A DNA stretch of 64,000 bases from a virus (lineage: Duplodnaviria > Caudoviricetes): the IMG/VR virus record IMGVR_UViG_3300027874_000010, positions 10,413 through 74,412 of that record; one strand, 5' to 3'. Positions 1 to 42,239 of the stretch are shown here, piece after piece. Positions within the stretch are counted from its first letter, which is position 1; every line of letters begins with the position of its first letter. The translations under genes were made by a program, and so were the position numbers. The notes under the pieces were generated by a model. The model was not told where the DNA came from, made no database searches, and saw only the letters and a program-made list of their open reading frames with translations.

Positions 1-3000
1 ATTCATGACGGCATCCACGACGGCGTTGCGGCCGTTCTGCAACGCCGTCTTGACCACCTTGCCCGCGATGTCTGAGGACTCCTCGTGGACCTTCATCGCC
101 CACTTGACCGAGCCAGCATCGCGCATGGCCTGCGTCTCGGGGATGTCCTCGGTCTTGTTCCAGTCGGCGTTGCTCCACACCGCGTGGTCCTTATCGGGCA
201 CGGCGAACTGCTCGGGGCTGCGCTGCAGCGCCGTGCTCTTGCCCGACGCGCCGCCACCGCCCAGGACGCTGACGGTCGGTCCCCCCTCGGCGGGTGGCAC
301 GTAGCCGCCGCCAGCCACACCTTGTTCGTGGTTCTCGTAGATGCCGTGTTGGGCGCGGTCGATGGCCGGCTCGTGTACCTTGTCCAGGCGCGCCTGCACG
401 TAGTCGCCCTTCTTGCCGCCCTCGGGCATGTACAGCTTCTGAGTGTCACCCTTGTCGCGCAGGAAGCCGTGCGGGTTGTCCTTGGTAATCAGCGACGAGG
501 AGTCGCCCGACTCGACGTTCTCGCCGCCGCCGACGCCAGCGGCGAAGCGCCCCGAGTTGTCGCGCGGGTGCTTGTCCTCGAAGTCCTGATCCTTGGTTTC
601 GGGCAGATCGAGGATGTTCAGCCAGGTCTGCGTCTTGGGGCGGAACACCTGTACCGGCTGGCCCGCACCGAGCAGCGAGCGCTCCATGTCGCGGATCTGC
701 TCGGTGACGGCCTTGGTCAACTCGTCGCGGGAGTCCACGATGGTGTGCTCCCACCCGTTCAGGTTGAGCTTGCCGTTCTTGTCGCTCTCCTCGGACGGCG
801 CGTGCCCAGGCCAGTAGCCGGTCGCCTCGTGGTGCAGCCACGCGCACAGCGCCTGGGGGTTGTCCACCTTGTCGGTGAGCGTGTCCACACAGTCATCGAA
901 GTCGCCCGGGTGCCCGCCGTCGAAGCGGTCCTTCCAGTAGTCGAGCAGTGCCTCCAGATTGCCCGCCTTGTAGCTCAGCCGCTCGCCGTCGTCCGCGACC
1001 TTGGTCGGCCACTCGCCCGTGGCGTGCTTGTACAGCCACGCCGTCACTTCGAGGTGGTCGTCCAGGGCTTTCATCGCCGCATCGAAGTCGCCGCCGCCGG
1101 CCGCGAAGGTGTCGCGCCAGTGGTTGAGTAGTTCCACCACCTCGGCGGTCTTCTTCTTCTTGGGCGGCTGGCGCGGGCCACCTGGCGGGACCATGATGCC
1201 GCCGTAGGTGTCGATGCCCTCGGTCAGGATCTTGGTGGCATTCAGCGGGATGGCGACCTGGCGACCATCGGTGCCCGAGTAGGTCAGATCCCCCAGGGTG
1301 ATGTGCATGCCATACAGCGGCGACCTCTGGCCGACGTACTTCGAGACGGCCGAATGCTTGATGTAGGCGATGGTCACGTGCGGCGTGTAGTTGGTGTGCG
1401 TCTCGACGTTGGCGAGCGAGCGCTTGATGATGCCGTTGAGATGGCCCGCGTCGTCGCTGGTGACGCTCACGTACAGCGGCACGCCGCCGCCCTGGTCCTG
1501 GCCGGCGAAGACGTAGTTCGGCCCAAACGTCATGGCGACCGGCGTCTGGTCCTTGACCACGCGCGCCACGTCGCTCGCGCCGACGTTGGGCATCAGCCCG
1601 TACTTGACGGTGACGTGCGGCTCCATCTCGATGCCGCCGCTGCCCAGGTCGTCGGGGTCGATGTGGTCCTCAGCCCACTCGACCAGTTCGTTGCCCAGGA
1701 TCTCTGGCAGGTTGAGTTGCGTCGAGGAGTAGTCGTAGCCGCTGGTCGCGTCGGTCTTGAGCATGTACGGGTCTTGGCCGCACCAGGCGCACACGCCGAG
1801 TTCCACCGAGCGGTAGTGGCCCATGTCGTCTTCGGGGCAGTCGGGGATGATCTCGAACCGCCCGTCGCTGGTCATCTTCGTCTCGATCATCTTCCCTCCT
1901 GGGCCGGCTGAGCCTGACTCCTGTGCGCCACCCGGTGGCGGTACGCCAGGGATGGATGGTGGTGCGCCGCCGCCGCCAGGTCGTCCGCCGAACGCGCCGC
2001 CGCCACCTGGCGGCAGGCCGGGCGGCTGGTCAGGCTGTCCTGGCGGCTTGTCCCCCTTGTGGTAGTTCGCCAGTTCGTCGGAGGGCGTCGGGATCATGTT
2101 GGCTGGCAGCAGCACCCACCCTGGCTGGTCGGTCGGGTAGCCGAGCGTCTGCGCCGCGACGTGCCACGGGATCAGGCCCGCCGTGAAGTCGGCACGCACG
2201 CGGGCGTGCACCTTGTCCACGTCCTCGGTGTAGCCCGGCACCTGGCTGAGGTCGAAGTCGAAGTGGTCAACCTCGGGGAAGTCGGGCTTGATCTGCAGCG
2301 AGAACTGCTGCGCCAGATCCTCGTACATCGGAGCCAGCGAGCCAGTCCACCACTGCGCTCGGTCCGACTCCTTGTTCGAGTTGTTCAGGCCCGACGAGGA
2401 CTGGTGGCCGAGGACCGTCCAGATGATCGACGGCGGCACGTCCAGTACCGCGCAGATCTTGGACTCGGTGACGCGGTTGATGTCGTCCAGGCCCAGGCCC
2501 ACCGGGTCCATGCCCATCTTGGTGTAGGTCGCCTGCCCGTTGTCGATGACCAAGACGTTGCCCCACCCGTCTGGCCCGCCGTACTGCTGGCGGAAGCGCT
2601 GGCGGATGATCTCGCGCTCGTTGGGTTCGACCGAGCGCATGATGTTGAGCAACCCGCTCGGCACGCCCGCGTTCCTGAAGAACGCCGTGGTGAACTCGCG
2701 GCACCACACGTCGATGTCGATGCGCTCGGCCAGCACCGCCAGCGGCGACAGGCCGTAGTAGTCGTTCAGCGGGTTGGGGTTCTTGAAGTGGATGACATCA
2801 TCCGGATCCAGGGTGAACACCCGCTCCCCGATGCGGTACTCGTACGCCTGGATGTAGTCCTTTTCGTCAGGGATGATCCACACGCGGTCGGGTCGCAGCG
2901 GCCAGTACTCGATGATCTTGCCCGAGCGCCCTCGCACGATCTCCCAGTAGGCGTTGCCGTTGATCTTGAGCGCCACCACCGTGGACGACCACAGCATGAA

Positions 3001-3315
3001 CGTCGTCCACCACTTGTTGGGGCGGTTCAGGACATCCAGCGCGGGGTGGTCGAAGATGGCGTCGGCGTCGTGCGCCTTGGAATCGAAGACCACCATGCGC
3101 GGCAGCGCCGCTGACTTCGCGACGGCCTGGCACGCGGCGAAGACGACCTCGGACCCCAGGTAGCCCTTGCGCGCCAACTGGTCGTACGAACGTTGGTTCC
3201 AGATCGGCGTGGCCGGCAGGCCAACCTGCCAGGTCGGGATGGCCGTCGCCACAGCCTGCTTCGTCTCGCCCCCGAACAGAGCGAGCGTGCGGAAGGCGTC
3301 GGCCAGCAGGCCCAT
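1..3315 (-). CDS. Portal protein (HK97-like) fused to an Acb1-like 2H phosphoesterase, two helical repeats and a zeta-toxin-like P-loop kinase; runs off the left edge (>=1105 aa)
   Basis: Absent from the ORF track because there is no stop in the window. ATG at 3315 abuts the upstream TAA. Hand translation found no stop; codon-level checks at 1141-1320 and 1861-2100. Portal motifs GNAYWEIVR, LRPDRV, DVIHFK-NP-D-YYGLSPL, FFRNAGVPSGLL. Then a Pro/Gly linker, 2H motifs HVTVKY (1609-1617) and YTPHVTIAY (1372-1380), the HPRDNSGRF tag, and Walker A GGGGASGKST (235-261) with VHEESS. Located downstream of terL. Confidence 0.9.
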   Translation of the reverse strand, partial: MGLLADAFRTLALFGGETKQAVATAIPTWQVGLPATPIWNQRSYDQLARKGYLGSEVVFAACQAVAKSAALPRMVVFDSKAHDADAIFDHPALDVLNRPNKWWTTFMLWSSTVVALKINGNAYWEIVRGRSGKIIEYWPLRPDRVWIIPDEKDYIQAYEYRIGERVFTLDPDDVIHFKNPNPLNDYYGLSPLAVLAERIDIDVWCREFTTAFFRNAGVPSGLLNIMRSVEPNEREIIRQRFRQQYGGPDGWGNVLVIDNGQATYTKMGMDPVGLGLDDINRVTESKICAVLDVPPSIIWTVLGHQSSSGLNNSNKESDRAQWWTGSLAPMYEDLAQQFSLQIKPDFPEVDHFDFDLSQVPGYTEDVDKVHARVRADFTAGLIPWHVAAQTLGYPTDQPGWVLLPANMIPTPSDELANYHKGDKPPGQPDQPPGLPPGGGGAFGGRPGGGGAPPSIPGVPPPGGAQESGSAGPGGKMIETKMTSDGRFEIIPDCPEDDMGHYRSVELGVCAWCGQDPYMLKTDATSGYDYSSTQLNLPEILGNELVEWAEDHIDPDDLGSGGIEMEPHVTVKYGLMPNVGASDVARVVKDQTPVAMTFGPNYVFAGQDQGGGVPLYVSVTSDDAGHLNGIIKRSLANVETHTNYTPHVTIAYIKHSAVSKYVGQRSPLYGMHITLGDLTYSGTDGRQVAIPLNATKILTEGIDTYGGIMVPPGGPRQPPKKKKTAEVVELLNHWRDTFAAGGGDFDAAMKALDDHLEVTAWLYKHATGEWPTKVADDGERLSYKAGNLEALLDYWKDRFDGGHPGDFDDCVDTLTDKVDNPQALCAWLHHEATGYWPGHAPSEESDKNGKLNLNGWEHTIVDSRDELTKAVTEQIRDMERSLLGAGQPVQVFRPKTQTWLNILDLPETKDQDFEDKHPRDNSGRFAAGVGGGENVESGDSSSLITKDNPHGFLRDKGDTQKLYMPEGGKKGDYVQARLDKVHEPAIDRAQHGIYENHEQGVAGGGYVPPAEGGPTVSVLGGGGASGKSTALQRSPEQFAVPDKDHAVWSNADWNKTEDIPETQAMRDAGSVKWAMKVHEESSDIAGKVVKTALQNGRNAVVDAVMN

Positions 3316-3534
3316 TTAGAGTTCTCCGGCAGCTTCGAGTTGGTCAACCAAGAGCGCGATGTCGTCGTAGGCCCGCTGCGTCTTGGCCCTGCCGCCCCCG
3401 CGCGACTGCTTCATGCACACGGCCATCCGCTGTTGCATGTCGGGAAACTCGCCCTTCAGTGCCGACATGCAGCGACCCATGAAATCGCTCTGTGACTCGC
3501 CGCCGCTTGGTTCAGGTAGTGGCATGGTTTCCAT
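3316..3534 (-). CDS. Small head-region protein (MPLPEPSGGESQSDFMGRCM...QRMAVCM)
   Basis: 3' part of track ORF 3316..3711; stop abuts the portal ATG. Confidence 0.7.
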   Translation of the reverse strand: METMPLPEPSGGESQSDFMGRCMSALKGEFPDMQQRMAVCMKQSRGGGRAKTQRAYDDIALLVDQLEAAGEL

Positions 3535-4033
3535 CCAATTCGGCAACCCGCGTGATGAGCGCTTGTCCGCGCACCGCCTGCGCGCCGACCTGTTCGAGGA
3601 CGCCCTGCAAGTCGAGAATCGTCTGGCGCAGCACGGCGTTTGAGTGCTCGATGCGCGTGATGCGCTGCGAGGAAGCAGCGAGACGAGACTCACTCGCGCG
3701 CCGCGCCCCAACCGCCTCGCTCAGTGCGGCGCTCTGTCGTTCCGCAGCGGCTTCGAGTTCGGAGATGCGCTGCTGCAGGCGCGTGATGTCGTCACGATTT
3801 CTCGCCAGGGTCCGCTCCAGGGTCAACGTCTCGGCGCGAATTCGCTCGATCTTCGCGCCACATGGCGCGTGCTGAGCGTTCAGTTCATCGAACGCTCGTT
3901 GCCACTGCGCTTCGAGCCGCTGCGCATCAGCTTCCATCCGCAGGATGCGCTGGTCCCTGATCTCGACGTAGCGCATCAGGGTGCCCACGTCGGGCGCTCC
4001 CTCTACCGTGGCGTTCGGCTCAGGCAGCGGCAT
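3512..4033 (-). CDS. Coiled-coil hypothetical protein, 173 aa
   Basis: Track ORF; heptad-rich, in operon order between terL and portal. Confidence 0.7.
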   Translation of the reverse strand: MPLPEPNATVEGAPDVGTLMRYVEIRDQRILRMEADAQRLEAQWQRAFDELNAQHAPCGAKIERIRAETLTLERTLARNRDDITRLQQRISELEAAAERQSAALSEAVGARRASESRLAASSQRITRIEHSNAVLRQTILDLQGVLEQVGAQAVRGQALITRVAELDGNHATT

Positions 4034-10214: not shown

Positions 10215-10414
10215 TGCCGCTGAACGCCGAGCAGATCGAGCGCGAGACGCTGTGGTGGTGCATCAAACGCCAGGTGAAGGTCGTCGGCGGCTGGCACATC
10301 GCGGCCTTCTGCCCACTGCTGATATGGGACTCGGCCCGCGAGGTCCAGGCCGAGGTCAAAGACATGCACCGCCGCCAACTGGCGATGGAAGCCCTGTGGG
10401 ACCGTCTGCTGTGA
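10214..10414 (+). CDS. Hypothetical protein
   Basis: TGATG overlap. Confidence 0.6.
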   Translation: MPLNAEQIERETLWWCIKRQVKVVGGWHIAAFCPLLIWDSAREVQAEVKDMHRRQLAMEALWDRLL

Positions 10415-28761: not shown

Positions 28762-29361
28762 CTAGCGCAGGCCGATGATCCGCGAGCACCTCGGCCAAGC
28801 GCCCCATCCCTGTGACGCCTGCCCCGCTATGGCGACGGTGATCTGCTGGTTCGGACTTGCCAGGTCGGGCCTGGCAGCGAAGGCTTTACCACCGTAACGT
28901 GCCCAAAATGTGAGATCCTCTTGGAGTCCGCCGTAGTAGCCATTGCCCGTATTCGTTGCCCAGTTTCCGGAAGATTCGCAGGCAGCGAGACGAGTCCAGA
29001 CGCTACTCGGCGGTCCCGTTTGTGGGGGAGTCGCCGCCTGAGCGGAAGACGCCACAGCCTGCTGGCCCTGCGGAATTTCGAGTCGCCAGGTCCGCCAGCC
29101 ATCGGTAAACGATGGTTGCTCGCCTTTGCGCCACACGGCCAGCCCGGTCGTTGTTCGCTGCACAGCGTCGGCATCCTCATTCTGATGCTCGACTTCGACC
29201 GGGGTGCCCATGATGTCCCCGATCTGGCTATGCAGTTGCTCAAACCCTTCCGCGAAGTCTGGCCCGCGCGCCGCTGGTAGGATAGTCATCTCGTCTGCAG
29301 ACACCCCGCCCCCGGGGTTCAGCGTCTGCGCGACGAGTAACAAACTCGCCAGTACGTGCAA
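28762..29361 (-). CDS. Exported resuscitation-promoting-factor (Rpf)-type transglycosylase
   Basis: WTRLAACESSGNWATNTGNGYYGGLQ...W...PDLAS..QQI...QGWGAWPRC; hydrophobic N-terminus. Confidence 0.92.
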   Translation of the reverse strand: MHVLASLLLVAQTLNPGGGVSADEMTILPAARGPDFAEGFEQLHSQIGDIMGTPVEVEHQNEDADAVQRTTTGLAVWRKGEQPSFTDGWRTWRLEIPQGQQAVASSAQAATPPQTGPPSSVWTRLAACESSGNWATNTGNGYYGGLQEDLTFWARYGGKAFAARPDLASPNQQITVAIAGQASQGWGAWPRCSRIIGLR

Positions 29362-30683: not shown

Positions 30684-30947
30684 ATGGAACACTGCACCGT
30701 TTGCGGCCATCCGCTGGATGCGCACGAACCCGACAACGACGGCTTCGCCTGCACCGTCCCGTACTTCGACCCGCTCACCGACGAGGTGAGCTTCTGCACG
30801 TGCTCGCGGACGTGCTGCCTGCCCGAGCGCTGCCCGCACTGCCCTGAGTACCAGGGCCGCGCCGTGGGGTGGGGCGGCGGCAATCCCCGCCACATCTGCT
30901 GTCTGTGCCTGGATCTACCCGAGGAGATCCTCGCCGCCAACCCGTAG
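30684..30947 (+). CDS. Cys-rich zinc-binding hypothetical protein
   Basis: Track ORF, SD GAAAGG; CxxCGH...H pattern. Confidence 0.6.
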   Translation: MEHCTVCGHPLDAHEPDNDGFACTVPYFDPLTDEVSFCTCSRTCCLPERCPHCPEYQGRAVGWGGGNPRHICCLCLDLPEEILAANP

Positions 30948-32564
30948 CTGGAAGCGGCGGATCTGCGCCAGTCGGTGCTCCGAGAACCGATAACCGGTTA
31001 TCGTTTTGGTCGCGAGCGCACTTCTGGCTTCGGGCGAGATCGGGTAGCCGTACTGGTCGGCCTTGCCGATCACCGCCTTGCCGAGCGCGGGGAACTTGTC
31101 GGCCATGAAGCTCGGTTCGTCGTGCAGCACCGAGTACGCCTCCGCGACGATCTCGCCCGGCGTGGTCTGGCCGTTGACGCCCCATATCTCGCCGTTTTTG
31201 CCCTTCGCGCCCATCGCCCCCTGGTCGGCCAGGTCGAACGCCGAGCCGTCCTTGAGCATCTCGTCGGACAGACCGTGGCCGATCTCGTGGTGGATTACCG
31301 CCTCCCGCTGGCGATTATCCAGATCGAAAAATTCTGAACCGAGGGTGATGTCGCTGCCGCCGCCGCGCCCGTGCTGGCCCTCGTGCCCCAGGCCGGCGTC
31401 GTACTTGAAGCCTTTGGGCGGATGGTCCTTGAAGTCCTGCTCGGACATGGCCGCGACCTTCTTCGGGTCGGCGTAGGTCGCCTGCACGCTGCCGCCGCCA
31501 CCACCTACGGTCCAGCGACCCGACTCGTCGCGGGCCTGGTCCTCGCGAAACTTCAGCACGCGCGCCAGCAGCGGGTCCATCGCGACCCACTGGCCCGGCC
31601 CCTGGACGGCGAGCACCTTCAGGATGGCTTCGAGCATCTTGGCTGTGCCCGCTTTCTGCGCGATGCCCATTGCCGTGGTGTACTCGCGCGAGGTGTCCAG
31701 AATCGTGCCGATGTCGGCGTCCACGCGCTGCACCGGCAGATCGAACTTGGTCTTGCCCGCTCTGAGGTTCGCCAGCACCGTCGCCGCCCACTGGTGGTGG
31801 CCGTCCACCACGTAGTCGTCCTTGCTAACAAAGATCGGCCGGATGTTGAGCTTGCCCTGCTCCAGGGCGTCGGCCATGCCCGCGACCTGGGGGCCGACCA
31901 GATCCATCTGAGTCGCCCGCAAGCTCTCGGCCGGCACGCGACCGTCCGTCACCTTGAAGCCCTGGTGCTCCAGTTCGTCGCGGAACGCCTCGCCTAAATT
32001 GACCGAGCCGCGCGAGTTCTTGGGGTACTTCGACTCGTCGTCGGCTGGACTGCCCTTGGTCGGCGGGCCGGATAGTTGCGGCATCTGCACGCGCGGGATG
32101 CCCAGGGACTGCTGCGTAAAGAGGTTGGTGCCCGGCACGGTCACCAGGCCCAGGTCGTACGTCGGGGCCTTCTCACCCTTGGCGACGGCATCCTCAGCCA
32201 TGTCCCCGAGCTTGTCGGTCAACGTCACCACCTGGCGGGCCTGGTCCAGGCGCACGTGGTGCCCGGCATGGATCTCGCGTACCGCGTGGTCGAGGTCGCC
32301 ATCGACGTAGATCGGATGCGCCATCGAGCCATCCGCGTTCGGGTCACCGCCGGTGTGCGGCACCTGAGCGACAGCGTTGTGCGCGGCGTCACTGTGATCG
32401 GGTGGTGGCGACGACGATGGGGTCGTCGCACCCCCTCCCCCGCCAGACGAGAACTCGCCGCGCTCGTTGCGCGGATGCTGCGATTCGTCCCACTCCTTGA
32501 ACTCGACGCGCTCCAGTACCGCGCGCATGGCCTGGATCTCGCGGGTTAGCTCGGCGCGGTCCAT
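30915..32564 (-). CDS. Two-module tagged protein (549 aa): ParB/Srx-like domain + HExxH zinc metallopeptidase
   Basis: ATG 32564 in track ORF. Tags KEWDESQHPRNERGEF and KFREDQARDESGRW. ParB-like LRATQ...IFVSKDDYVVDGHHQWAA; peptidase HHEIGH...EIVAEAY. Confidence 0.85.
   Translation of the reverse strand: MDRAELTREIQAMRAVLERVEFKEWDESQHPRNERGEFSSGGGGGATTPSSSPPPDHSDAAHNAVAQVPHTGGDPNADGSMAHPIYVDGDLDHAVREIHAGHHVRLDQARQVVTLTDKLGDMAEDAVAKGEKAPTYDLGLVTVPGTNLFTQQSLGIPRVQMPQLSGPPTKGSPADDESKYPKNSRGSVNLGEAFRDELEHQGFKVTDGRVPAESLRATQMDLVGPQVAGMADALEQGKLNIRPIFVSKDDYVVDGHHQWAATVLANLRAGKTKFDLPVQRVDADIGTILDTSREYTTAMGIAQKAGTAKMLEAILKVLAVQGPGQWVAMDPLLARVLKFREDQARDESGRWTVGGGGGSVQATYADPKKVAAMSEQDFKDHPPKGFKYDAGLGHEGQHGRGGGSDITLGSEFFDLDNRQREAVIHHEIGHGLSDEMLKDGSAFDLADQGAMGAKGKNGEIWGVNGQTTPGEIVAEAYSVLHDEPSFMADKFPALGKAVIGKADQYGYPISPEARSALATKTITGYRFSEHRLAQIRRFQLRVGGEDLLG
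30989..31002. promoter_or_regulatory. Palindrome GATAACCGGTTATC (copy 4 of 7; 16 bp with C/G flanks)
   Basis: In the 3' tail of the 549-aa gene. Confidence 0.7.
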
Positions 32565-32746
32565 GCGGGATCTCCGTCCTCGAACTGGATGCCGTGGTCG
32601 CCCGGGTACGTCTGGCGATGCTCGATCTTGGACTGCCAGATCTCGTCGGGGATGCCGTGCGTAAACGCCTCGCAGCGCATGAACGCCTTGGGTGGCGGCG
32701 CTTCGAGGTGGATGCAGTGCAGGCAGATGGCTGGTGGGAACTTCAC
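32546..32746 (-). CDS. Small Cys/His protein (CxxCxH...CxAF..GIP..I...H...GDHGIQF), candidate immunity/inhibitor
   Basis: GTGA-coupled to the polyprotein stop. Confidence 0.8.
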   Translation of the reverse strand: MKFPPAICLHCIHLEAPPPKAFMRCEAFTHGIPDEIWQSKIEHRQTYPGDHGIQFEDGDPAWTAPS

Positions 32747-35700
32747 TCGTCGCTGGCCCGTGGCGCTTTTCCAAACACCTTTTTCATCACGTCACCCGCC
32801 GCTTTCGCGACCGGGTGCTCTGAGCCGAGATAGTACGCCGAGAACGCCTCGGCCCACGCCTCGTCGCGAGATCGCTGCGCGTAGCGCGAGAAGTCACCCA
32901 CGTTCTCGGGAGCCAGCGTCTTGGACAGGAAGAAGAAGCTGTTGAACGCCATGCGCTGATCCTCGGTGAAGGCGTCTCTGTTGTCCTGAATGGCGTTAGC
33001 GACCGCGTGGCCGAACTCGTGCACCGCCGTCGAGCCGGGGATCTTCGACTCGGGGTACGAGAAGCCCGTGTCCGCGCCGTCGCGCTCGTACTTCTCGGCG
33101 GGCAGCGGGTCGTTGGGCTGGTAGCCCGAGCCGAAGTGGATGGCCGAATAGCCGAACTCGTTGCTGCTGGTCGCCATGATCGCCTGCGGGTTCTCGCGCA
33201 TGTAGTCCTTCATGTCCTTGGTGCGCGGCTGGCCGACCTGAAGCAGCATCTTGCCGACCTCGGGGTACTGGTTGGAGAGCTTGCCCAGGAACTGCGAGAC
33301 GGGCACGAGTTGGCGCTTCAGATAACTGTCGTAGTCCACCCGTGCGCGCGGGTTCGGCAGCGTGCCCTTGAGTGCCTTGGCGATCTGTGCCTGACTCCAC
33401 TTGGTAGCGTCGTTCTGGCCGTACGGACTCTCTGGCCCGAGCGCAGCGGGCGGGTTCTTGAGTGGCGCGTCGAGCGCCGCGAACTTGGGCTTCGGAGCGC
33501 CGCCGCCGCCGCCTGAAGTCCAGCGACCACTGTCGTCGCGCGGCTGATCCGGGTCGTACGCCTTCGTCTCTAGATCTGCCCAGGTCGTCTTGGTCTGGAA
33601 CAGCGCTGCGCCATTGGGAGGTGGCCCACCGCCGCGCCGCTTGCTGTACGCCTGGGCGCTGACTTCATCCTTGCCGCCCAGGAGCACGACCTCCTTCTCA
33701 GGTTTGCAGCCGAAGCCGCTGTTCATAGTTGAGAGGATGCGACTGGCCGGTACCTTCGCGGCCATCATCGCGCCCTCGTGCTCACCCGCAAAATTCGCGG
33801 CCTGCTTGAACGAGTAGGACCACGACGACGCCGGCTGCTGTGCCGTTTGCACCACGGCAGGCTTGCCGTTGAACTTCATCCCCGTCTCACGCTGTAACGC
33901 CGCCACGGTTTTGCCAGCGCTGAAGTTCAAACCTCGGTACACGGTCATCTCGGTGATGCCTTTTGCAGCCAGGTCCGCCTGGGTGTTGTCGTACATGGCG
34001 CGAGCAAACGCTCGGTAGGCGGCACCATTCTGCTGGTACTCCTGCTCGACCCTCGCCTGGGCGTCACGTCCCTGGTAGGCAACACGAGCATCGAGGTGCT
34101 CGGTGGTCGCGTCCTCCAGGCCGAACTCGTCCTTGATGGCCTGCTGCATAGCGATGGCTCGGACGTTGGTGTCGCCCGAGGTTTCCGCCCACCCGTGAAC
34201 AAGCCTGGCAGTTTGGTTCACACGGTCCACGTCGTCCATTTGGCGTGACGGCAGGCCAGCACGACTGGCACGGCCCTCATCGAGGAGCCGCTGCACGTAC
34301 TCGTTGAATGGGGCACTGTCCTTGAGACGGTTGCCTAGTTCCCACGAGATGCGCTCCTTGTATTCGTCGCGACTGGACCTGGGATTGAACAGCGCCTTGT
34401 TCGCCGCCTGCTCGTCGGCCCTGGCCGCATTGACTGCCGTGCGGCCCATGCCGAGCGGGTCGTCGGGCGCGGAGGGCGCACCAGTAGCTTCCCATCGCCC
34501 GCGCTCGTCACGCGCCTGGTTGGGGTCGTACTCCTTCAGTTCGAGCAGCGCCCAGGTCTTGTGCGAGGGCAGCGCGCTCGGCAGCGGCGGACCGTCGTAG
34601 GCGTGGTAGGCATCCATCACGTCCTGGCTGTAGGTCTTGCCGTTGAGCATCCCGGTGTACGTCTCGGCCACGAACTCGGCTGGCTCGGTCGCCGCGTAGC
34701 GCGAGACTTGTGCGGCAGCGGCCCGGTGCGCCGGGTTCGCCCACGGCTCGTGTGCGTCGTGCTCCTTGCCCAGGCTCTCCTCGTGCACCGCGTGCTGCAA
34801 GTGCGCCAACTCGTGGGTCATCACATGCGCGGGGTCACTATCCGACCAGGCGTGCGAGTTGGCCTGATCCTGGGCGGTCGCCTTCGCGTTCGACCAGTCG
34901 CCGTTGCGGTTGACCGCCAGGTAGTCGCCGCCACGGTTGTAGCTCGCCAGCGTGTCGCGGTCGGCCATCGACTCGACGGCCACGCTCTTGGGCATGACCA
35001 TCGACGGGTTCTTCTCGGTGATGTCGAACAGTTGCCGGTTGGCCTCGTTCGCAATGGGCAGATCGCCTTGCTCCTCGAAGTGCGGGTACTTGATGCCAAG
35101 GCCCCTGGTGAACTGCGCGGCGTCCTCCAGCGACTTCGCCGGAGCGAACGCGGTTGGGCGCGGGATGACCTCCGGCTCGGGCGGCTTGTAGTCGGGCGGC
35201 AGGATGCTGCCCTTGACGTGGATCACGTCCGGGTTGATGTCGGGAGCCTCGCTGACGAGGATCTTGTCTCCTGGCTGGACGTTGCCCGGCACGTCGTACA
35301 CCACACGGACGCTGATACCCGGGATGGCGGCGGATTGCGCTGCGGTGTGGCGCTCGGCCTCCTCGGGCGTGCCGAACGCCTTCGCGCCGCTCGGGATGGT
35401 GTGGACCGAGCCTTTGTCGAGCAGCATCACCGCCGACAGCGCGTGCGGATCGCTCAGCGGGATCGCTTGGCCCAGGTGCGTCCATCGCCCCCGCTCGTCG
35501 CGCGGCTGGCTCTCGTCGTACGCCTTCGTGAACCAGTGCCGCAGGGAGGCAACCAGTTGCAGGGCGAGCTTGGTGTGGAAGATCTCGCTGGCCCCGTGCG
35601 GCGCGCCGGTTGGCGTGTTGCCCCAGGCTTGCGCCGCCACCACGTCGTCGGTGCTGCCGAGCACGACAACCTCGTCCTCGTTCTTGCAGCCGATGCCGGT

Positions 35701-38700
35701 CTTGAGCGTGCTCAGGATGCGAGACGCGGGCACCGTCGCGGCCATCAACGCCCCAGGGATGTTGCGCCCGCCCGAGAATTTGTACGCCTGACGGAAGCTG
35801 TACGCCCAGGATGACGCGGGCTGATTGCCGACCGTCACCTGATGCGGGTTGCTATCGGGCTTGAAGCCCGCCTGCCGCACCATGTCCGCGTCACGGAATC
35901 TGACGCCGCGATACAGGGTCATCTCCTTGATCCCGTCGCGCGCCAGTTCCTCCTGGGTGTTGTCGTACATAGCACGCGCGAACGCGCGATACGCCTCGCC
36001 GTTCTGTGCGTACACCCTCGCGACGTTGGGGGAGTCCATCGGCATGTGCTCGGTGCGCGCCTTCAGCCCGAACTCCTCGTTGATCGCCTTCTGCATCGCC
36101 ACCGCGTTGATGTTGCCGTCGCCCGACGTGCCAGCCCACATCGCGACCAGGCTGTTGACCGCGTGGTGCTGGCGTGTCTCGCCGGGCTTCAGCAGCGCCG
36201 TGGACAGGCTCATGGCGTACTTGCGGAACGCGGGATTGTTCGCCAGTCGCCCCGAGAGGTTCCGCACGATGTCGCCCTTGAAGTAGTTCGGGTTCAGGTT
36301 GTCGTTGTTGAGCGCCTGCTCAGCCGCCTGCTCGCGCGACTGGGCCTCGGCCTGACCCCACTCCTTGGGCGGCGCGGACATGGCGTTGCCGCCCACCGTC
36401 GTCCAGCGTCCATACTCGTCGCGCGGCTGGTTCTCATCGAATGCCTTGAGTTCGAGCCAGCGCACAGCGGTCTTGGTGTTCACCACATCCTCGGGGAAGC
36501 TCGGCGGGCCGTTACCGTTGGCTGACCAACTGAACGCGGCCACGTCGTCCTTGCCGCCCAGGACCACGACCTCCTTCTCGTCTTTGCACCCGAAGCCGGT
36601 CTTCATGGTCGAGAGGATTCGCGAGGCGGGTACCGTCGCCGCGATGACCGCGCCGTGCGTATCCGAGCCGCCCGCGAAGCCGGAGGCCACGTCGAAGCTG
36701 TACGCCCAGGACGACGCGGGCTGCTCGTTCACCGTCGCCGGGTGCGACTTGTCGTCGTACTCGAAGCCCATCGGCGGGTTGTCAGGCCCGAACTGGAGGC
36801 CACGGTACAGCGTCATCTCGCTGATGCCCTGGCGCGCCAGTTCCTCCTGGGTGTTCTGATACATCGCCCGCGCGAACGCGCGCAGGCCCGGCCCCTGCTC
36901 CCTGTACTCCTTGCGCGCCTCGAACTTCAGGTCCGCTGCGCTCTTGTCCCACGATGGTCCGCTGAGCAGATGGTCCATGCGGGCGTCGTTCAGGTGGAAC
37001 TCGTCGCGTATGGCCTGCTGCATGATGACCGACTGGACGTTGTTGTCACCCGAGCTATTGGCCCACTGCGCGATCAACCCCGACGCCGTGTCTACGGGGC
37101 TGGAGGTGCCAAAGCGCTTCTCGCCGTCAGCCAGGTACTTCTCCCAGTCGGGGTTGCCCTGCAGCCGATACGCGAGATCCTTGCTCAGGCGCTCCTTGTA
37201 CTCCGAGGCCGAGTGGGAATCGAACTGGCTGTCGATGGCCGCATCCGCGACGTTCTCGCGTCCGATGAGCGTGGAGCCTGACTCCTTGGCTGGAGCCTTG
37301 AGCGCATCCTCCTCGGCGTTGCCCTCAGCGGTCCAGCGGCCGGCGGCATCGCGCGCCTGGTTCGGGTCGTAGTCCTTTGTCTCCAGGGATCTCCAGGCGG
37401 TCTTGACGTTGAACAGTCCCTCGGGACTGAGCGGGCGTCCGGAGAGCTTGCTCCAGGCTTGTGCGGCGACCTGATCGTTACCGCCCAGGACCACCACTTC
37501 GTGTTCCCGCTCGCACCCGATACCCGAGTTCAAGGTGCTCAGGATGCGACTGGCGGGCACCGTTGCCGCCAGCATCGCGCCCCGCGAGTCGAAGTGACCA
37601 TGCAGCGCACTCGCGGCCTGCGTCACGACGCCAGCGATGGTCGCGCTCCCAAAATCGTAGGACCACGATGAGGCGGGCTGCTGGCTGACCGTCGTCGCGT
37701 GGGGTTCACCGTCGAACGTCAGGCCAGGGGGAGTCTGAGAGCCGAAGCTCATGCCGCGATACAGGGTCATCTCCTTGATGCCCTTTGAAGCGAGGTCGGC
37801 CTGAGTGTTGTCGTACATCGCCCGCGCAAACGCGCGGTAGGCCGCACCGTTGGCCTCGTAGTCGGGTCGCGCCCCTTCAATGCCCAGGTGATCCGTCACG
37901 GCGTCCTTCAGTCCGAACTCGTCGCGGATCGCCATCTGCATTGCCACGGCCTGCGGTCGGTTGTCACCCGAGGACTGCGCCCACAACTGGACCAGCGACG
38001 ACGCCGCCGTCTCGGACTGAGTGGGCACGTGCGCCCTGAGCACGTCGTACATCACCACCCTGGGCGGAACGGGATGCGCTCGCGTCAGGTACTCCTTCCA
38101 GGCGGGGTTGTCCTCAAGTCGGTCGCTGAGTTCCTTGGCGATGCGGACTTTTTCCTCGGGCCGCGAGGTCGAGTGGTCGTTGAGCGCACGGTCGGCTTCG
38201 TCCCGCCGCGCGTGCGCCACGATTTGCTCCTTGGACCAACCAGGCTTGCCGAAGGCTTCGATGGCCGAGGCTGTGGGTGCGCCGGTCGCCGCCCACCGTC
38301 CGCGCTCGTCGCGCGCCTGGTCCGGGTCGTACGCCTTGAAATCAAGCGATAACCCGTTATCGGCCCAGGTCTTGGTGTGGACCAGATCGCCCGGCTCGGA
38401 CGGCGGGAAGCCGTGGTTGGCGTACCAGGCCCACGAGTTGACTTCATCCTTGCCACCCAGGACCACGACCTCCTTCTCGTCCTTGCAACCCCACCCCGAG
38501 TCCATCGTGCTCAAGATCCGTGAGGCGGGCACGGTCGCGGCGAGCATCGCGCCGGTACCGCTCTCGGTCGGCGCGAAGCCGCTGGCCTGGTGGTAGCTGT
38601 AGGACCACGACGAGGCGGGCTGCTCGACGGTGGTGACCGCGTGCTCGCGGCCGTCGAAGATCAGACCCGTCTTCGGATCCGGGATGGTGGGGTGCGGCGT

Positions 38701-41421
38701 CACGCCGCCGACGCCGGTATCGAAGCTCATACCGCGATACAGGGTCATCTCGGTAATGCCTTTTGCAGCCAGGTCCGCCTGGGTGTTTTCATACATCGCC
38801 CGCGCGAAATCGCGGTACGCCTCGCCCCTGATGGCGTACTCCTGGCGCATCTCCTCCTTCAGGCTGGCCGCGCTCGTTCCACTCGATTCCCAGGACTGGC
38901 CGCTGAGCAGATGGTCAGTCGTCGCGTCTTTCAGCCCGAACTCGTCCTTGACAGCCTGCTGCAGCGCCGCCGGAATCACGTGGTTGTCGCCTGATGAGCC
39001 GGCCCAACTCTGGATCAGGTTGGACGCAGCCCAGGCACGCTCGGCAGCGACACTCCTGGCAGGCGCTTCCATCGGCTCGCTGCCCGACCAGTTCTGGTAC
39101 GGGTGCTCGCGGAACGCCTCGGCCTGAGAGTGCGCGTAGTCGTTGAAGGCGGCACTGCCCTCCAGTCGATCCCCGATCTCCTGGGAGATGCGCGCCTTGT
39201 ACTCCTGCTTGGAGGCGCTCATGTCGTTGATCGCCTCGTCCACTTGGTTGTGCGCCGTCTCCGCTGCCGCCGTGCCCGCCGCCGGACTGCCCGGGAAGTA
39301 CGAGCCTTCTTCGGGGTTCGGCAGGCTCGGCGTGCCGGTCGCCGCCCACCGTCCGCGCTCGTCACGCGGCTGGCTCGGGTCGTAGTCCTTGCGCTCCAGG
39401 GGGAGCCATACTGTCTTGACGCTCAACAGCGGCCCGGTGCTCTTGGGTGGACCGGCACCACCCGCGTCCCACGCCTGGGCAGTCACTTCATCTTTGCCGC
39501 CGAGCAACACCACCTCGCGCTCGGGCTTGCAACCAAAGCCCGAGTTCATGGTTGAGAGGATGCGACTGGCGGGGACGGTCGCCGCCATGACCGCACCCGG
39601 GTAGCTGCTGCCAGCTTCGGACGAGAACGTCGTGGCCTGGGAATAGGCGTACGCCCAGGACGAGGCCGGCTGCTGCACCACCGTGGTGCGGTGCGGCTCG
39701 CCATCCCCCTGCAGGCCGGCTGGCAACTCGGCATCGCGGGCGAAGTGCATCCCGCGATAGATGGTCATCTCCTTGATGCCCTTCGCCGCCAGGTCTGCCT
39801 GGGTGTTGTCGTACATCGCTCGCACGAACGCGCGGTAGCCATCCCCGAACGTGCCACCCGAGAGGCCGGTGGACTGGTTCGAGAAGTCACTGGCTCGACT
39901 GAGGTCCGTCCGGCCCACGTGGTCCATCGTCGCGTCCTTCAGGCCGAACTCGTCCTTGATGGCCTGCTGCATGGCGACCGAGGCGCTGCTGGAGTCCATC
40001 GAGGTGTTGGCCCATCCCTCGATCAGTTGGCTGACCAACTTCTCCGACGCCGCCGGACCGGTCGATGCGCCCACGTAGTCGCGGAACTTGACCCACCGTG
40101 GATCTTTGTTGGCGCGGACGGCGATCTCCTTGGCGATGCGCGCCTTGTACGCCTCGCGTGTGGCACTCTGGTCGTTGAGCGCGGCCTCGGTCGCTTTGAG
40201 CATCGCCTGCCCGGAGTCCTTGCCCGTGTCAGGCGCGCGAGTCACGTCGCCCGCGCCCACCGTCCAGCGACCGGATTCGTCGCGCGGTTCGCTCTCGTCG
40301 TACGCCTTGAATTGTCCAGCGCGTTGGACAGTTTTTCTGCGCGGGTTGTACTTGGCTCCTGGGCGCGACAGCATGCCCGCGATTCGCGGACCGTCGCCTT
40401 TGCCGAAGAAGTTGCCCGCGCCCGTCCACGAGTTCACCGTGTCCTGTCCGCCGAGCACGACGATCTCGTTCTCGTCCTTGCAGCCCATGCCGCTTTTCAT
40501 CGTGCTCAGGATGCGTTCGGCCGGCACCGTCGCGGCCATGACCGTGCCCACGACGCCGCCCGAGAAGGCACGCGCCACGTCCGGGTTGTAGGACCACGAC
40601 GACGCGGGCTGCTGAGTGACCGTCAGCGTCTCGGTGGCGGGCACGTCCTGATTCAGGCCGAAGCCTGCGGCGTGGGCGTCAGACGAGCGATCCCAGGACA
40701 TGCCGCGATACAGCGTCATCTCCGAGATCCCCTGGGCCTTCAGTTCAGCCTGAGTGTTGTCGTACATCGCCCTGGCGAACGCGCGATACGCCTCGCCGTT
40801 TTTGGCGTAGTCCCGCTCGGCCTGCTCCATCGTGCCTGCCAGGTCTTCGCTCAGGAAGTGCTCGGTGCTGGCGTTGGTCAGCCCGAACTCGCGCTGCACG
40901 GCGAGTTGCATCGCCACTGCCTGGCGGTCGCCGTCACCCGAGGTGCCCGCCCACTGGTTGACGAGGATGCTGACGCCGGTCTTCAGCGGGTCGGCCTCGC
41001 GGTCCCACATCGGCTTGAGCATCGGGTTGTGACGACCCGTCGCGACCATCTCTTTGAAGGCCGCGTTGTCGCGCAGCCGCGTGGCGATCTCGTCGGTAAT
41101 GCGCGCCTTGTACTCCTCGGCCTTGGCGTTGGGATCGTTGAGCTTGGCGTCGGCCTCCGCGACACGCTCATTGACGCGCTCCTCGCTGGCGCGCTTGGGC
41201 TGCGCCGTACCACCGCCCGAGTCCGTCCAGCGCCCACCTTCGTCGCGCGGCTGAGACGGATCGAAGTCCTTCTTCACCCACACGCCGCTGCGATTTTCCA
41301 GAAAGCTAAATTTTCGGAGCTTGGTGGTCGGCCGCTGCTCCTCGGCCGCGAGGTCCGCCCAAATCTTGTCGAGGATGGCCTCGTCCTCGGGCGTGGTGTC
41401 GTACGGCGAGCCGACGCTCAC
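32743..41421 (-). CDS. Nine-module polyprotein (2892 aa): seven ADP-ribosyltransferase-like domains + two HExxH metallopeptidases, each with an N-terminal PRDxxGRW tag
   Basis: Seven copies of EMT[LIV]YRG...QPASSW[SA]Y...AA[TK]VPA.RILST..[ST]G.GC..E.E.V.LG (R-S-ExE); THELAH and VHEFGH modules with SRYA...E..AE. Confidence 0.92.
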   Translation of the reverse strand: MSVGSPYDTTPEDEAILDKIWADLAAEEQRPTTKLRKFSFLENRSGVWVKKDFDPSQPRDEGGRWTDSGGGTAQPKRASEERVNERVAEADAKLNDPNAKAEEYKARITDEIATRLRDNAAFKEMVATGRHNPMLKPMWDREADPLKTGVSILVNQWAGTSGDGDRQAVAMQLAVQREFGLTNASTEHFLSEDLAGTMEQAERDYAKNGEAYRAFARAMYDNTQAELKAQGISEMTLYRGMSWDRSSDAHAAGFGLNQDVPATETLTVTQQPASSWSYNPDVARAFSGGVVGTVMAATVPAERILSTMKSGMGCKDENEIVVLGGQDTVNSWTGAGNFFGKGDGPRIAGMLSRPGAKYNPRRKTVQRAGQFKAYDESEPRDESGRWTVGAGDVTRAPDTGKDSGQAMLKATEAALNDQSATREAYKARIAKEIAVRANKDPRWVKFRDYVGASTGPAASEKLVSQLIEGWANTSMDSSSASVAMQQAIKDEFGLKDATMDHVGRTDLSRASDFSNQSTGLSGGTFGDGYRAFVRAMYDNTQADLAAKGIKEMTIYRGMHFARDAELPAGLQGDGEPHRTTVVQQPASSWAYAYSQATTFSSEAGSSYPGAVMAATVPASRILSTMNSGFGCKPEREVVLLGGKDEVTAQAWDAGGAGPPKSTGPLLSVKTVWLPLERKDYDPSQPRDERGRWAATGTPSLPNPEEGSYFPGSPAAGTAAAETAHNQVDEAINDMSASKQEYKARISQEIGDRLEGSAAFNDYAHSQAEAFREHPYQNWSGSEPMEAPARSVAAERAWAASNLIQSWAGSSGDNHVIPAALQQAVKDEFGLKDATTDHLLSGQSWESSGTSAASLKEEMRQEYAIRGEAYRDFARAMYENTQADLAAKGITEMTLYRGMSFDTGVGGVTPHPTIPDPKTGLIFDGREHAVTTVEQPASSWSYSYHQASGFAPTESGTGAMLAATVPASRILSTMDSGWGCKDEKEVVVLGGKDEVNSWAWYANHGFPPSEPGDLVHTKTWADNGLSLDFKAYDPDQARDERGRWAATGAPTASAIEAFGKPGWSKEQIVAHARRDEADRALNDHSTSRPEEKVRIAKELSDRLEDNPAWKEYLTRAHPVPPRVVMYDVLRAHVPTQSETAASSLVQLWAQSSGDNRPQAVAMQMAIRDEFGLKDAVTDHLGIEGARPDYEANGAAYRAFARAMYDNTQADLASKGIKEMTLYRGMSFGSQTPPGLTFDGEPHATTVSQQPASSWSYDFGSATIAGVVTQAASALHGHFDSRGAMLAATVPASRILSTLNSGIGCEREHEVVVLGGNDQVAAQAWSKLSGRPLSPEGLFNVKTAWRSLETKDYDPNQARDAAGRWTAEGNAEEDALKAPAKESGSTLIGRENVADAAIDSQFDSHSASEYKERLSKDLAYRLQGNPDWEKYLADGEKRFGTSSPVDTASGLIAQWANSSGDNNVQSVIMQQAIRDEFHLNDARMDHLLSGPSWDKSAADLKFEARKEYREQGPGLRAFARAMYQNTQEELARQGISEMTLYRGLQFGPDNPPMGFEYDDKSHPATVNEQPASSWAYSFDVASGFAGGSDTHGAVIAATVPASRILSTMKTGFGCKDEKEVVVLGGKDDVAAFSWSANGNGPPSFPEDVVNTKTAVRWLELKAFDENQPRDEYGRWTTVGGNAMSAPPKEWGQAEAQSREQAAEQALNNDNLNPNYFKGDIVRNLSGRLANNPAFRKYAMSLSTALLKPGETRQHHAVNSLVAMWAGTSGDGNINAVAMQKAINEEFGLKARTEHMPMDSPNVARVYAQNGEAYRAFARAMYDNTQEELARDGIKEMTLYRGVRFRDADMVRQAGFKPDSNPHQVTVGNQPASSWAYSFRQAYKFSGGRNIPGALMAATVPASRILSTLKTGIGCKNEDEVVVLGSTDDVVAAQAWGNTPTGAPHGASEIFHTKLALQLVASLRHWFTKAYDESQPRDERGRWTHLGQAIPLSDPHALSAVMLLDKGSVHTIPSGAKAFGTPEEAERHTAAQSAAIPGISVRVVYDVPGNVQPGDKILVSEAPDINPDVIHVKGSILPPDYKPPEPEVIPRPTAFAPAKSLEDAAQFTRGLGIKYPHFEEQGDLPIANEANRQLFDITEKNPSMVMPKSVAVESMADRDTLASYNRGGDYLAVNRNGDWSNAKATAQDQANSHAWSDSDPAHVMTHELAHLQHAVHEESLGKEHDAHEPWANPAHRAAAAQVSRYAATEPAEFVAETYTGMLNGKTYSQDVMDAYHAYDGPPLPSALPSHKTWALLELKEYDPNQARDERGRWEATGAPSAPDDPLGMGRTAVNAARADEQAANKALFNPRSSRDEYKERISWELGNRLKDSAPFNEYVQRLLDEGRASRAGLPSRQMDDVDRVNQTARLVHGWAETSGDTNVRAIAMQQAIKDEFGLEDATTEHLDARVAYQGRDAQARVEQEYQQNGAAYRAFARAMYDNTQADLAAKGITEMTVYRGLNFSAGKTVAALQRETGMKFNGKPAVVQTAQQPASSWSYSFKQAANFAGEHEGAMMAAKVPASRILSTMNSGFGCKPEKEVVLLGGKDEVSAQAYSKRRGGGPPPNGAALFQTKTTWADLETKAYDPDQPRDDSGRWTSGGGGGAPKPKFAALDAPLKNPPAALGPESPYGQNDATKWSQAQIAKALKGTLPNPRARVDYDSYLKRQLVPVSQFLGKLSNQYPEVGKMLLQVGQPRTKDMKDYMRENPQAIMATSSNEFGYSAIHFGSGYQPNDPLPAEKYERDGADTGFSYPESKIPGSTAVHEFGHAVANAIQDNRDAFTEDQRMAFNSFFFLSKTLAPENVGDFSRYAQRSRDEAWAEAFSAYYLGSEHPVAKAAGDVMKKVFGKAPRASDE
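38348..38361. promoter_or_regulatory. Palindrome GATAACCCGTTATC (copy 5 of 7)
   Basis: In the linker between polyprotein modules 3 and 4. Confidence 0.65.
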
Positions 41422-42239
41422 GCGCTCAGGCCCTTGGCCTTGAGGTACGCGGCCATCACCTGGCGACCCTGGGAAGTCGGGTCAGTGTCCATCGTCATGC
41501 CCGTTGGTCCGCCGTGCTCCTTCCAGAACGCCGCGCCGCCGGGCATCTTCATCAGGTTGCTGAGCGTGCCCGCGCCCTTGTACTGGGCCGGCCAGGTGGG
41601 GCGGAAGCCGACCGGAGCGTCGAAGCCGATGCGCGCCCAGGTGTAGTAGCCGTTTTCCTCGGGGTGGAACTCCTTGGAGCCGACGCCGGTGAGTTGGACC
41701 TTGGGCAGGCCAGCCTGGTGCGCTGCCTCGACCGCCCGCGCCATGACCTGCACGCCCTTGCCGGATCCGCGCGCCTCGGGCTTCAGGTAGATCTGTTCGT
41801 AGTGCAGGTACGGGCCGTTCGGCGCACCGTAGGTGCCGTCGCCGTTGTAGATCATGGCGACGGCCTGGTCTTCGATGTCGGGGTGCTCCGCGACGATGGC
41901 TACGCCTGGACCGTGCATCTGGTCATCCCAGTTGACGACCTTGATCTTGGCCCCGTTCGGAGCACCGACCAGTCCCGCGATCTGGTGGTCCGAGAGATCC
42001 CTACCCAGGAGCTTCTGCACGCGCGCGTGCACATCCTTGGCGACTTCGAGCGGACCGCTGCTGCCACCAGCAGTCCAGCGACCACCCTCATCTCGCTCCT
42101 CGGTTTCCCACGCTGCCTTGCGGTTTTGATCCGGCCGAAATAACAAACGCCGGGTAGGGACAATCTCCCCTACCTCGGCGCTAACGACCCGCCGCAGGGT
42201 CGCCTCCATGTCCAGCAGTGCGGCTCTTGGCTCAGCCAT
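41418..42239 (-). CDS. Tagged GNAT-like acetyltransferase
   Basis: Tag KAAWETEERDEGGRW; GNAT motif A IYLKPEARGSGKG; GYYTWARIGF. Confidence 0.8.
   Translation of the reverse strand: MAEPRAALLDMEATLRRVVSAEVGEIVPTRRLLFRPDQNRKAAWETEERDEGGRWTAGGSSGPLEVAKDVHARVQKLLGRDLSDHQIAGLVGAPNGAKIKVVNWDDQMHGPGVAIVAEHPDIEDQAVAMIYNGDGTYGAPNGPYLHYEQIYLKPEARGSGKGVQVMARAVEAAHQAGLPKVQLTGVGSKEFHPEENGYYTWARIGFDAPVGFRPTWPAQYKGAGTLSNLMKMPGGAAFWKEHGGPTGMTMDTDPTSQGRQVMAAYLKAKGLSA

Follow-up and report, generated by a model that had tools for sequence, protein, structure and literature searches.

A 2892-residue phage protein with seven predicted R-S-ExE ADP-ribosyltransferase modules and two putative zincin peptidases, each headed by a repeated tag

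A single phage gene was found to encode seven predicted mono-ADP-ribosyltransferases (ARTs) and two putative zincin metallopeptidases in one chain, each headed by a copy of the same short sequence tag. The gene (P0001, hereafter the giant ORF) lies in a stretch of 64,000 nucleotides (the window; positions 10,413 to 74,412 of IMG/VR virus record IMGVR_UViG_3300027874_000010) within a 74.4-kb viral contig with a CheckV completeness of 67%. We consider it probable (roughly 0.65) that its product is a head-packaged, host-injected phage polyvalent effector protein comprising seven mono-ARTs of the R-S-ExE type and two zincins. We infer that the protein would be loaded into an HK97-type prohead and exit with the DNA, that the Lys-preceded tags would mark processing sites at which the S78 prohead protease or the zincins in cis would cut, freeing nine proteins, and that each ART module would be catalytically active, transferring ADP-ribose from NAD+ to a different host macromolecule, with the ExE motif favouring Arg on proteins as the modified residue.

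The giant ORF is a single open frame with a GTG start and without internal stops, and its GC content at third codon positions (GC3 = 0.86) is similar to that of the remaining genes of the contig. A 52-aa leader is followed by nine modules (Table 1), which open with K-x-[YF]-D-x-x-Q-[PA]-R-D-x-x-G-R-W. A regular expression (regex) scan located the tag [FY]D.xQ[PA]RD..GRW at residues 53, 680, 1031, 1351, 1661, 1968, 2298 and 2622, and a ninth copy at residue 374 was the E-P-R-D variant YDESEPRDESGRW. The same approach recovered seven copies each of W[AE]x[TS]SxD, RxFxRAMYxNTQ, EMT[LIV]YRG, QPASSW[SA]Y and GC..E.E.V.LG, all in modules 1–6 and 8, as well as HELAH in module 7 and HEFGH in module 9, each followed by SRYA. 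A DNA repeat search, which is independent of the protein motifs, returned a 66-nt tag unit in nine copies (spacing 918–1053 nt) and ART-core blocks in seven copies with 60–80% nucleotide identity. When aligned with MAFFT, the seven ART-like modules showed 41–46% identity to module 1 and shared 71 invariant columns. An earlier reading of the window made from the letters alone (the sequence-only reading) had described one frame of 2892 aa with nine modules, and every motif that it listed was recovered in its place by the regex scan. Its description of the N-terminal halves of the ART modules as variable was too simple: WAxTSGD, AMQxAxxxEFGL and RAFxRAMYDNTQ, which lie there, are among the most conserved motifs. 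Variation within the array was found in the linker after the tag, the outer helices, an insert of variable length between the Arg strand and the Ser strand, and the segment after S-S.

For structural analysis, module 8 was modelled with AlphaFold2 (AF2) from a 42-sequence alignment composed of the seven modules and short relatives. The model (predicted local distance difference test, pLDDT, 89.3; predicted template modelling score, pTM, 0.86) consisted of six to seven N-terminal helices and a beta-rich sandwich core with the split beta-sheet, NAD+-binding arrangement that marks the ART fold. The top structural matches were R-S-E ARTs throughout (iota, C2, VIP2, C3 and ART2.2), and the match to C3, VIP2 and iota spanned approximately 165–185 residues, including the N-terminal helices and the topology of the ADP-ribosylating turn-turn (ARTT) loop. 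The catalytic Arg, in the context [YF]-R-G, was present in all seven modules and lies in the first core strand of the model (194–202); P-A-S-S-W-[SA], likewise found in every module, occupies the end of strand 234–238 and is followed by helix 241–247; and E-x-E, again present in seven of seven, belongs to a loop S-G-x-G-C-x-x-E-x-E that runs directly into strand 280–284. In 261 related domains outside the giant protein, the Arg was conserved in 100%, the following Gly in 99%, the two Ser residues in 83% and 89%, and the two Glu residues of E-x-E in 93% and 100%. The hydrophobic residue of the ARTT-like turn was M, F, W, I, F, I and F across the seven modules. The modules are predicted R-S-ExE mono-ART domains that resemble DRAT in sequence and C3/VIP2/iota toxins in fold, and judged by their residues all seven appear catalytically intact and would be expected to act as enzymes. 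The R-S-ExE assignment of the sequence-only reading was thus upheld by the AF2 model, whose fold is that of an ART and not a non-ART fold, by the R-S-E structural matches, by the conserved catalytic residues and by relatives that score as DRAT. Very long repetitive phage proteins are often structural, and the giant protein might be regarded as an internal filament or a tape-measure-like protein with coincidental motifs. This explanation is hardly credible in view of the globular modules with a high-confidence predicted ART fold, the 83–100% conservation of R, S-S and E-x-E over so many distant domains, and the DRAT scores of family members.

In searches of family databases, no Pfam family was matched above threshold by the giant protein or its modules. 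DRAT (PF07357) was matched by two of the seven modules (best E = 0.007), below its 25-bit gathering threshold. No NCBIfam model matched any module or relative, ADPrib_exo_Tox (PF03496) and ART-PolyVal (PF18760) matched neither the whole protein nor any module at E values up to 10, and a PDB sequence search with profiles of the ART modules gave nothing meaningful, as was the case for the two peptidase modules. Several multi-copy relatives exceeded the DRAT cutoff of 25 bits (P0006, 83; P0012, 65.6; P0009, 39; P0003, 32.6; P0023, 26), with matches that covered the catalytic half of the profile only (positions ~147–255). Because the relatives pass the Pfam cutoff and the seven modules do not, the relationship of the modules to DRAT is transitive. 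The modules share with DRAT the R-S-ExE signature and the matched catalytic half; unlike DRAT, which is a cellular regulator paired with DraG, they are viral and have a distinct, conserved helical N-terminal subdomain. Since Pfam and NCBIfam do not capture the family apart from marginal DRAT matches, it is under-annotated in phage genomes.

To place the array among its relatives, a profile of the seven modules was run against 1.84 billion representative proteins. It matched 3516 proteins at E ≤ 1e-3 and 667 at E ≤ 1e-30, giving a family of ~3,500 representative proteins at 50% identity. Among the best 150 members, ART domains were present in one (75 proteins), two (53), three (16), four (2), five (1) or 11 copies (1). 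The sequence-only reading had implied that seven tandem ARTs were unique, and had proposed a search for homologues with other module counts; these were found, and seven copies are rare but not unique, because family members have up to 11. The claim of uniqueness was also too strong because the polyvalent class already includes a Pseudomonas aeruginosa prophage protein with 12 ART domains (PMC5512222). The largest relative, the metagenomic protein P0002 (7059 aa), contained 11 ART cores and two HEYGH motifs and was without tags. Nucleotide-level and smaller searches returned little: a megablast search of 50,697 phage records with the gene gave no match, the only tblastn matches of module 4 were hypothetical proteins with a single copy from Bacillus phages SP-15 and HSE3, located in non-structural-looking neighbourhoods that offered no functional clue, and a word-indexed homologue search with an ART module found only four near-length relatives. 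A pattern scan of IMG/VR yielded 24 loci, of which almost all were C-terminal fusions with a single copy and none had a seven-copy gene.

Pairwise synonymous divergence (dS) among the seven modules was ~0.6–1.3. In a maximum-likelihood (ML) tree of these modules and 41 modules from 19 other proteins, the seven interleaved with foreign modules (six label changes) and formed a single clade in 0% of the bootstrap trees. The partner of module 1 in the tree was P0016 and that of module 2 was P0004, and the two P0005 modules grouped with modules 3 and 6. Module 3 was 88% identical to its P0005 orthologue, with a dN/dS of 0.082/0.42 (~0.2), and module 6 was 65% identical to the second module of P0005 (dN/dS ~0.4). 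The order of modules on the contig encoding P0005 (L037, a JGI 3300010366 contig) was m4-like, m3-like, m6-like, whereas here it is m3-m4-m5-m6. On L037, positions 1–460 encode the m4-like module, which is ended by a stop exactly at the conserved linker Trp, and the same frame resumes after the stop (461–3892) with a tag and the m3-like and m6-like modules; the stop may mark a split gene, be read through or stem from a sequencing error. The tree identified the arrays of P0006, P0009, P0013 and P0017 as lineage-specific duplications. For the giant ORF, recent tandem amplification was ruled out by the dS values and the interleaving with modules of other phages. From the interleaved tree, the orthologues and the changed order, the seven modules therefore appear to be reshuffled, conserved cassettes, which behave as old, distinct and separately conserved lineages shuffled between phages. 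The description of the modules as diverged paralogues in the sequence-only reading agrees with the alignment, the tree and the dN/dS values of the orthologues. Cassette-like conservation fits different substrate specificities, without proving them. A further explanation holds that the modules are NAD+-depleting glycohydrolases, or ARTs acting on DNA or RNA, with seven copies providing dosage or robustness to host inhibitors. We regard this as improbable: both the ExE motif, combined with an ARTT turn residue that is aromatic or hydrophobic, and the nearest structural matches (iota, C2, VIP2, C3 and ART2.2) belong to protein-modifying enzymes, DRAT is Arg-specific, and the modules are old lineages under purifying selection and not recent dosage copies.

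The two remaining modules, 7 and 9, contain HExxH and, ~35–45 residues further on, S-R-Y-A and E-x-x-A-E. The HEFGHAV and E-A-W-A-E-A-F motifs of module 9 resemble the lethal-factor/MtfA arrangement. Pfam matches of the peptidase modules were all below cutoff (ATLF, E = 0.0024 for module 9; Peptidase_M91, E = 0.012 for module 7; Mx1, E = 0.097). In a protein-language-model search, both modules had the same viral cluster as nearest neighbour (0.96 and 0.94), with M90 and ATLF clusters next in the ranking at ~0.9. The word-indexed search found no near-length relatives of module 9, and a local jackhmmer search with the peptidase modules was dominated by the shared tag and yielded one clear peptidase relative, P0028. 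The best reading of these sequences is that modules 7 and 9 are zincin peptidases; of the two metallopeptidases claimed earlier, the HExxH motifs stood, while the assignment to a zincin family was sub-threshold.

The tag was not confined to the giant ORF. Across the whole contig, 12 strict copies were found: the giant ORF has nine, a 622-aa gene, a GNAT acetyltransferase gene and the tail of the portal gene have a single copy each, and looser copies (H-P-R-G/N-x-x-G-[RE]-F or H-D-x-x-T-G-R-F) were present once in the 622-aa gene and twice in a 790-aa gene. At least five genes of this phage, the giant ORF and four others, are tagged. Lys precedes all 15 tags, and in the giant ORF the junction (marked by a slash) is T-K-T-x-W-x-x-L-E-x-K/[ADE]-[YF]-D, with L-E-x-K at five of the nine tags. 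The predicted maturation junction of the major capsid protein (MCP) of this phage is E-Q-K/A-L-S-E-G-...-G-G-Y-L-V-P and is kept in a relative with a 91%-identical MCP; the HK97 protease likewise cuts its own capsid protein after Lys. Because this junction and the HK97 cut also follow Lys, cleavage of the tags by the S78 protease is suggested, and we put the tag being a processing site at slightly under an even chance.

That the tag acts as an address or a joint without cleavage is possible but doubtful. In its full form this explanation, which we think unlikely, treats the tags as docking or address peptides (with the MCP delta domain, the extension of the protease or scaffold, or the portal as partners) or as flexible recombination joints, and the 310-kDa chain would be injected whole, like the N4 virion RNA polymerase (vRNAP), which is packaged unprocessed despite its metallopeptidase (MPTase) domain (PMC5512222). 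Among the best 150 family members, 47 carried a total of 106 tag copies, and only about half of these were preceded by Lys; the tag core Q-P-R-D-x-x-G-R-W and a Gly-rich tail were far more conserved in relatives than this Lys. Many tag-bearing proteins lacked HExxH in cis. Moreover, the tag formed a small hairpin-like element in the AF2 model (pLDDT ~81), and the differing module order among relatives (m4-m3-m6 vs m3-m4-m5-m6) is what recombination joints predict. On the other hand, one address suffices per polypeptide, yet each module has its own tag; a tag lies inside the C-terminal tail of the portal, a protein that needs no address; and the invariant Lys and frequent L-E-x-K of this phage's tags also speak for cleavage. 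In relatives, tags stand ahead of ART modules, of GNATs, of domains of unknown function and of an unrelated second ART type (ADPrib_exo_Tox, PF03496). In P0016 (aa 246–421, E = 6e-12) and P0028 (aa 1263–1411, E = 3e-14), this second type lies behind the same tag, in one polyprotein with a DRAT-like module. As a tentative proposal, which may well prove too broad, the Lys-preceded Q-P-R-D-x-x-G-R-W tag would serve a group of HK97-type phages as a general "cargo code", providing prohead loading and release by the maturation protease for any tagged cassette, with effector sets shuffled by recombination at the tags. If so, the set encoded here would comprise seven target-specialised ARTs, several zincins, a GNAT, a zeta-type kinase and a 2H phosphoesterase, and the seven ARTs would represent a pre-formed, multi-target arsenal for host takeover or anti-defence.

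The genes around the giant ORF are in line with head packaging. On the same strand, the tagged GNAT gene, the giant ORF and the 622-aa tagged gene are followed by genes for a transglycosylase of the Rpf type, a tail fibre that contains an S74 chaperone domain, and a Laminin_G virion protein of 2381 aa. A short opposite-strand block separates these from TerL and the portal, which ends in a 2H-phosphoesterase and zeta-toxin tail; next come a 790-aa DUF7178 protein (HEMGH), a 266-aa weakly MuF-like gene (PHROG head morphogenesis, E = 1e-6; Pfam, E = 0.088), the S78 (HK97-type) prohead protease, which has a long C-terminal extension, and the HK97-fold MCP, which has a delta domain of ~195 aa. The relative whose MCP is 91% identical has a tape-measure gene and is a siphovirus. 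The GNAT gene ends in a TGA stop that overlaps the GTG start of the giant ORF (GTGA), and the two genes are translationally coupled. Phage_Mu_F was located N-terminal to the ART domain in 6 of 10 single-copy relatives scanned, and structural neighbours in BFVD were annotated as head morphogenesis or minor capsid proteins. The late-operon position and the MuF fusions of relatives support head packaging of the giant protein, which we infer from them. It is very unlikely that the protein is not virion cargo and instead acts inside the cell or is secreted, as a polymorphic-toxin-like factor that serves lysogenic conversion or competition between bacteria. MuF toxins have been proposed to act in competition (PMC5576092), and a MuF domain was not found in the giant protein itself by Pfam scan. 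Against this explanation, the giant protein showed neither a secretion signal nor any known trafficking domain, the gene is part of a late structural operon and coupled translationally to another tagged gene, the portal carries the same tag, and no adjacent immunity-like or ADP-ribosylhydrolase gene was detected among the ORFs scanned.

Table 1. Coordinates of the giant ORF, its modules and tags, and other genes of the phage (window positions unless another contig is named; aa, residues of the encoded protein).
Feature	Position	Strand	Basis
Giant ORF P0001, leader and nine tag-headed modules	32743..41421	-	ORF, motif scan, GC3
N-terminal leader, aa 1-52, ends ...WVKK directly ahead of tag 1	41266..41421	-	
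Module 1, aa 53-373, ART-like; R239, S274/S275, E317/E319	40303..41265	-	motifs, alignment
Module 2, aa 374-679, ART-like; R556, S587/S588, E634/E636	39385..40302	-	motifs, alignment
Module 3, aa 680-1030, ART-like; R896, S937/S938, E982/E984	38332..39384	-	motifs, alignment
Module 4, aa 1031-1350, ART-like; R1222, S1251/S1252, E1306/E1308	37372..38331	-	motifs, alignment
Module 5, aa 1351-1660, ART-like; R1540, S1570/S1571, E1615/E1617	36442..37371	-	motifs, alignment
Module 6, aa 1661-1967, ART-like; R1838, S1870/S1871, E1915/E1917	35521..36441	-	motifs, alignment
Module 7, aa 1968-2297, putative zincin metallopeptidase; HELAH 2203, SRYA 2240, E-F-V-A-E	34531..35520	-	
Module 8, aa 2298-2621, ART-like, modelled; R2496, S2532/S2533, E2575/E2577	33559..34530	-	motifs, AF2
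Module 9, aa 2622-2892, putative zincin, lethal-factor/MtfA-like; HEFGHAV 2801, SRYA 2845, E-A-W-A-E-A-F	32746..33558	-	
Tag 1 (66-nt repeat unit)	41215..41280	-	repeat search
Tag 2 (66-nt repeat unit)	40252..40317	-	repeat search
Tag 3 (66-nt repeat unit)	39334..39399	-	repeat search
Tag 4 (66-nt repeat unit)	38281..38346	-	repeat search
Tag 5 (66-nt repeat unit)	37321..37386	-	repeat search
Tag 6 (66-nt repeat unit)	36391..36456	-	repeat search
Tag 7, heads peptidase module 7	35470..35535	-	repeat search
Tag 8 (66-nt repeat unit)	34480..34545	-	repeat search
Tag 9, heads peptidase module 9	33508..33573	-	repeat search
GNAT acetyltransferase gene, own leader and tag, upstream of giant ORF	41418..42239	-	
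622-aa gene, two tags, V-V-D-G-H-H-Q-W motif, C-terminal HEIGH...E-I-V-A-E-A-Y zincin motif	30915..32774	-	
Portal, 1229 aa	1..3315, on to G000 10038	-	
790-aa protein	L011:7400-9772, outside window on G000	-	
S78 prohead protease	L011:3760-5739	-	

T4 Alt is an R-S-E ART packaged in the head via an N-terminal targeting sequence, cut back by the prohead protease and injected along with the DNA, and the route proposed here (packaging, trimming, injection) is the same. Where Alt has its targeting leader, the giant protein has the 52-aa leader followed by a Lys-preceded tag, and the phage encodes an S78 protease. In contrast, no sequence relationship to Alt was detectable, and Alt is a single-domain protein governed by the rules of the T4 capsid targeting sequence (CTS) and gp21 (L/I-x-E), whereas here an HK97-type S78 protease is combined with the Q-P-R-D-x-x-G-R-W tag. 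C3/VIP2/iota-type toxins provide the best structural matches of the ART module.

The giant protein also has features by which polyvalent proteins of phages and conjugative elements, which combine 2–15 domains (Iyer 2017, PMC5512222), are recognised: at least two predicted enzymatic domains in one large phage polypeptide (seven ARTs and two HExxH modules) and co-oriented virion or head genes alongside (tail fibre, Laminin_G, transglycosylase, TerL, portal, S78 protease and MCP). In that class, the zincin MPTase is the commonest domain and the ART is the commonest protein-modifying domain, present "in one or multiple copies" (PMC5512222). Like such proteins, for example the N4-like vRNAP-MPTase-ART proteins, it is a giant multi-enzyme chain with multiple ARTs, interspersed putative zincins, a virion-gene neighbourhood and a predicted packaging and injection route. 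Unlike theirs, which belong to the H-Y-D clade (Tox-ART-HYD2 / ART-PolyVal), all seven ARTs are of the R-S-ExE type, and a repeated inter-domain tag is not described in the text of Iyer 2017 (text search of PMC5512222). As far as the texts were searchable, no description of such a tag, of R-S-E ART arrays or of virion proteins with tandem ART domains was found in the literature searched. Fusions of Alt/VIP2 ARTs to MuF (PMC9503650) and of MuF to VIP2 in Microbacterium phages Percival and Goodman (PMC7302621) have been described, and ARTs occur among the MuF toxins, of which the EFV toxin of an Enterococcus faecalis V583 prophage is the only one studied (Jamet 2017, PMC5576092). As in these fusions, an R-S-E ART is tied to a head-internal protein in the single-copy relatives with MuF; unlike them, the giant protein is without MuF, has seven ARTs and two peptidases instead of one ART, and carries the repeated tag. 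The 622-aa gene, in which a DGHH-type motif lies between two tags and HEIGH follows the second, resembles in layout DdrB of phage P1, in which a ParB-like domain and an MPTase are combined and which is processed before packaging; its V-V-D-G-H-H-Q-W motif is ParB/DdrB-like by eye, and Pfam was silent. By analogy, self-processing of the kind proposed for DdrB (PMC5512222) may be the role of the putative zincins in the giant protein. What appears new here is the ART clade, R-S-ExE and DRAT-like and not H-Y-D, the seven old, shuffled lineages, and the presence of the tag in four other genes.

Seven separately conserved R-S-ExE ARTs in one frame offer a side-by-side test of whether phage ART paralogues diversify by target. 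To our knowledge, T4 Alt is the only head-packaged ART known in detail, and polyvalent proteins are almost entirely computational predictions. If the tag is a processing or loading signal, injected phage effectors could be located with a simple sequence rule, and the tag might double as a means of loading foreign proteins into capsids of the HK97 type. The seven conserved ART lineages and a tag common to at least five genes of the phage are the features most worth pursuing.

Several observations were made on the other tagged genes and their neighbours. The leader of the GNAT gene, M-A-E-P-R-A-A-L-L-D-M-E-A-T-L-R-R...E-V-x-x-x-x-P, is homologous to the openings of P0003, P0004 and P0016, and the polyproteins P0003 and P0004 themselves carry a C-terminally fused GNAT. 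The portal tail contains 2_5_RNA_ligase2 (2H phosphoesterase, E = 7e-7) and a zeta-toxin kinase (E = 2e-10), and its tag reads E-T-K/D-Q-D-F-E-D-K-H-P-R-D-N-S-G-R-F. In the 790-aa protein, a leader with R-A-A-L-L-D-M-E-R-A-L is followed by a tag, DUF7178, the looser tag F-N-P-Y-H-D-A-D-T-G-R-F, a coiled coil and the HEMGH C-terminus. The extension of the S78 protease (~480 aa) contains two L-P-D-x-A-F-A...H-H...A-E-G-V repeats and long poly-Asp stretches, and may be a scaffold or cargo hub. The Rpf-type transglycosylase (PF06737, E = 6e-27) is encoded at window positions 28762–29361 (minus strand) and, together with a GC content of 65%, suggests an actinobacterial host.

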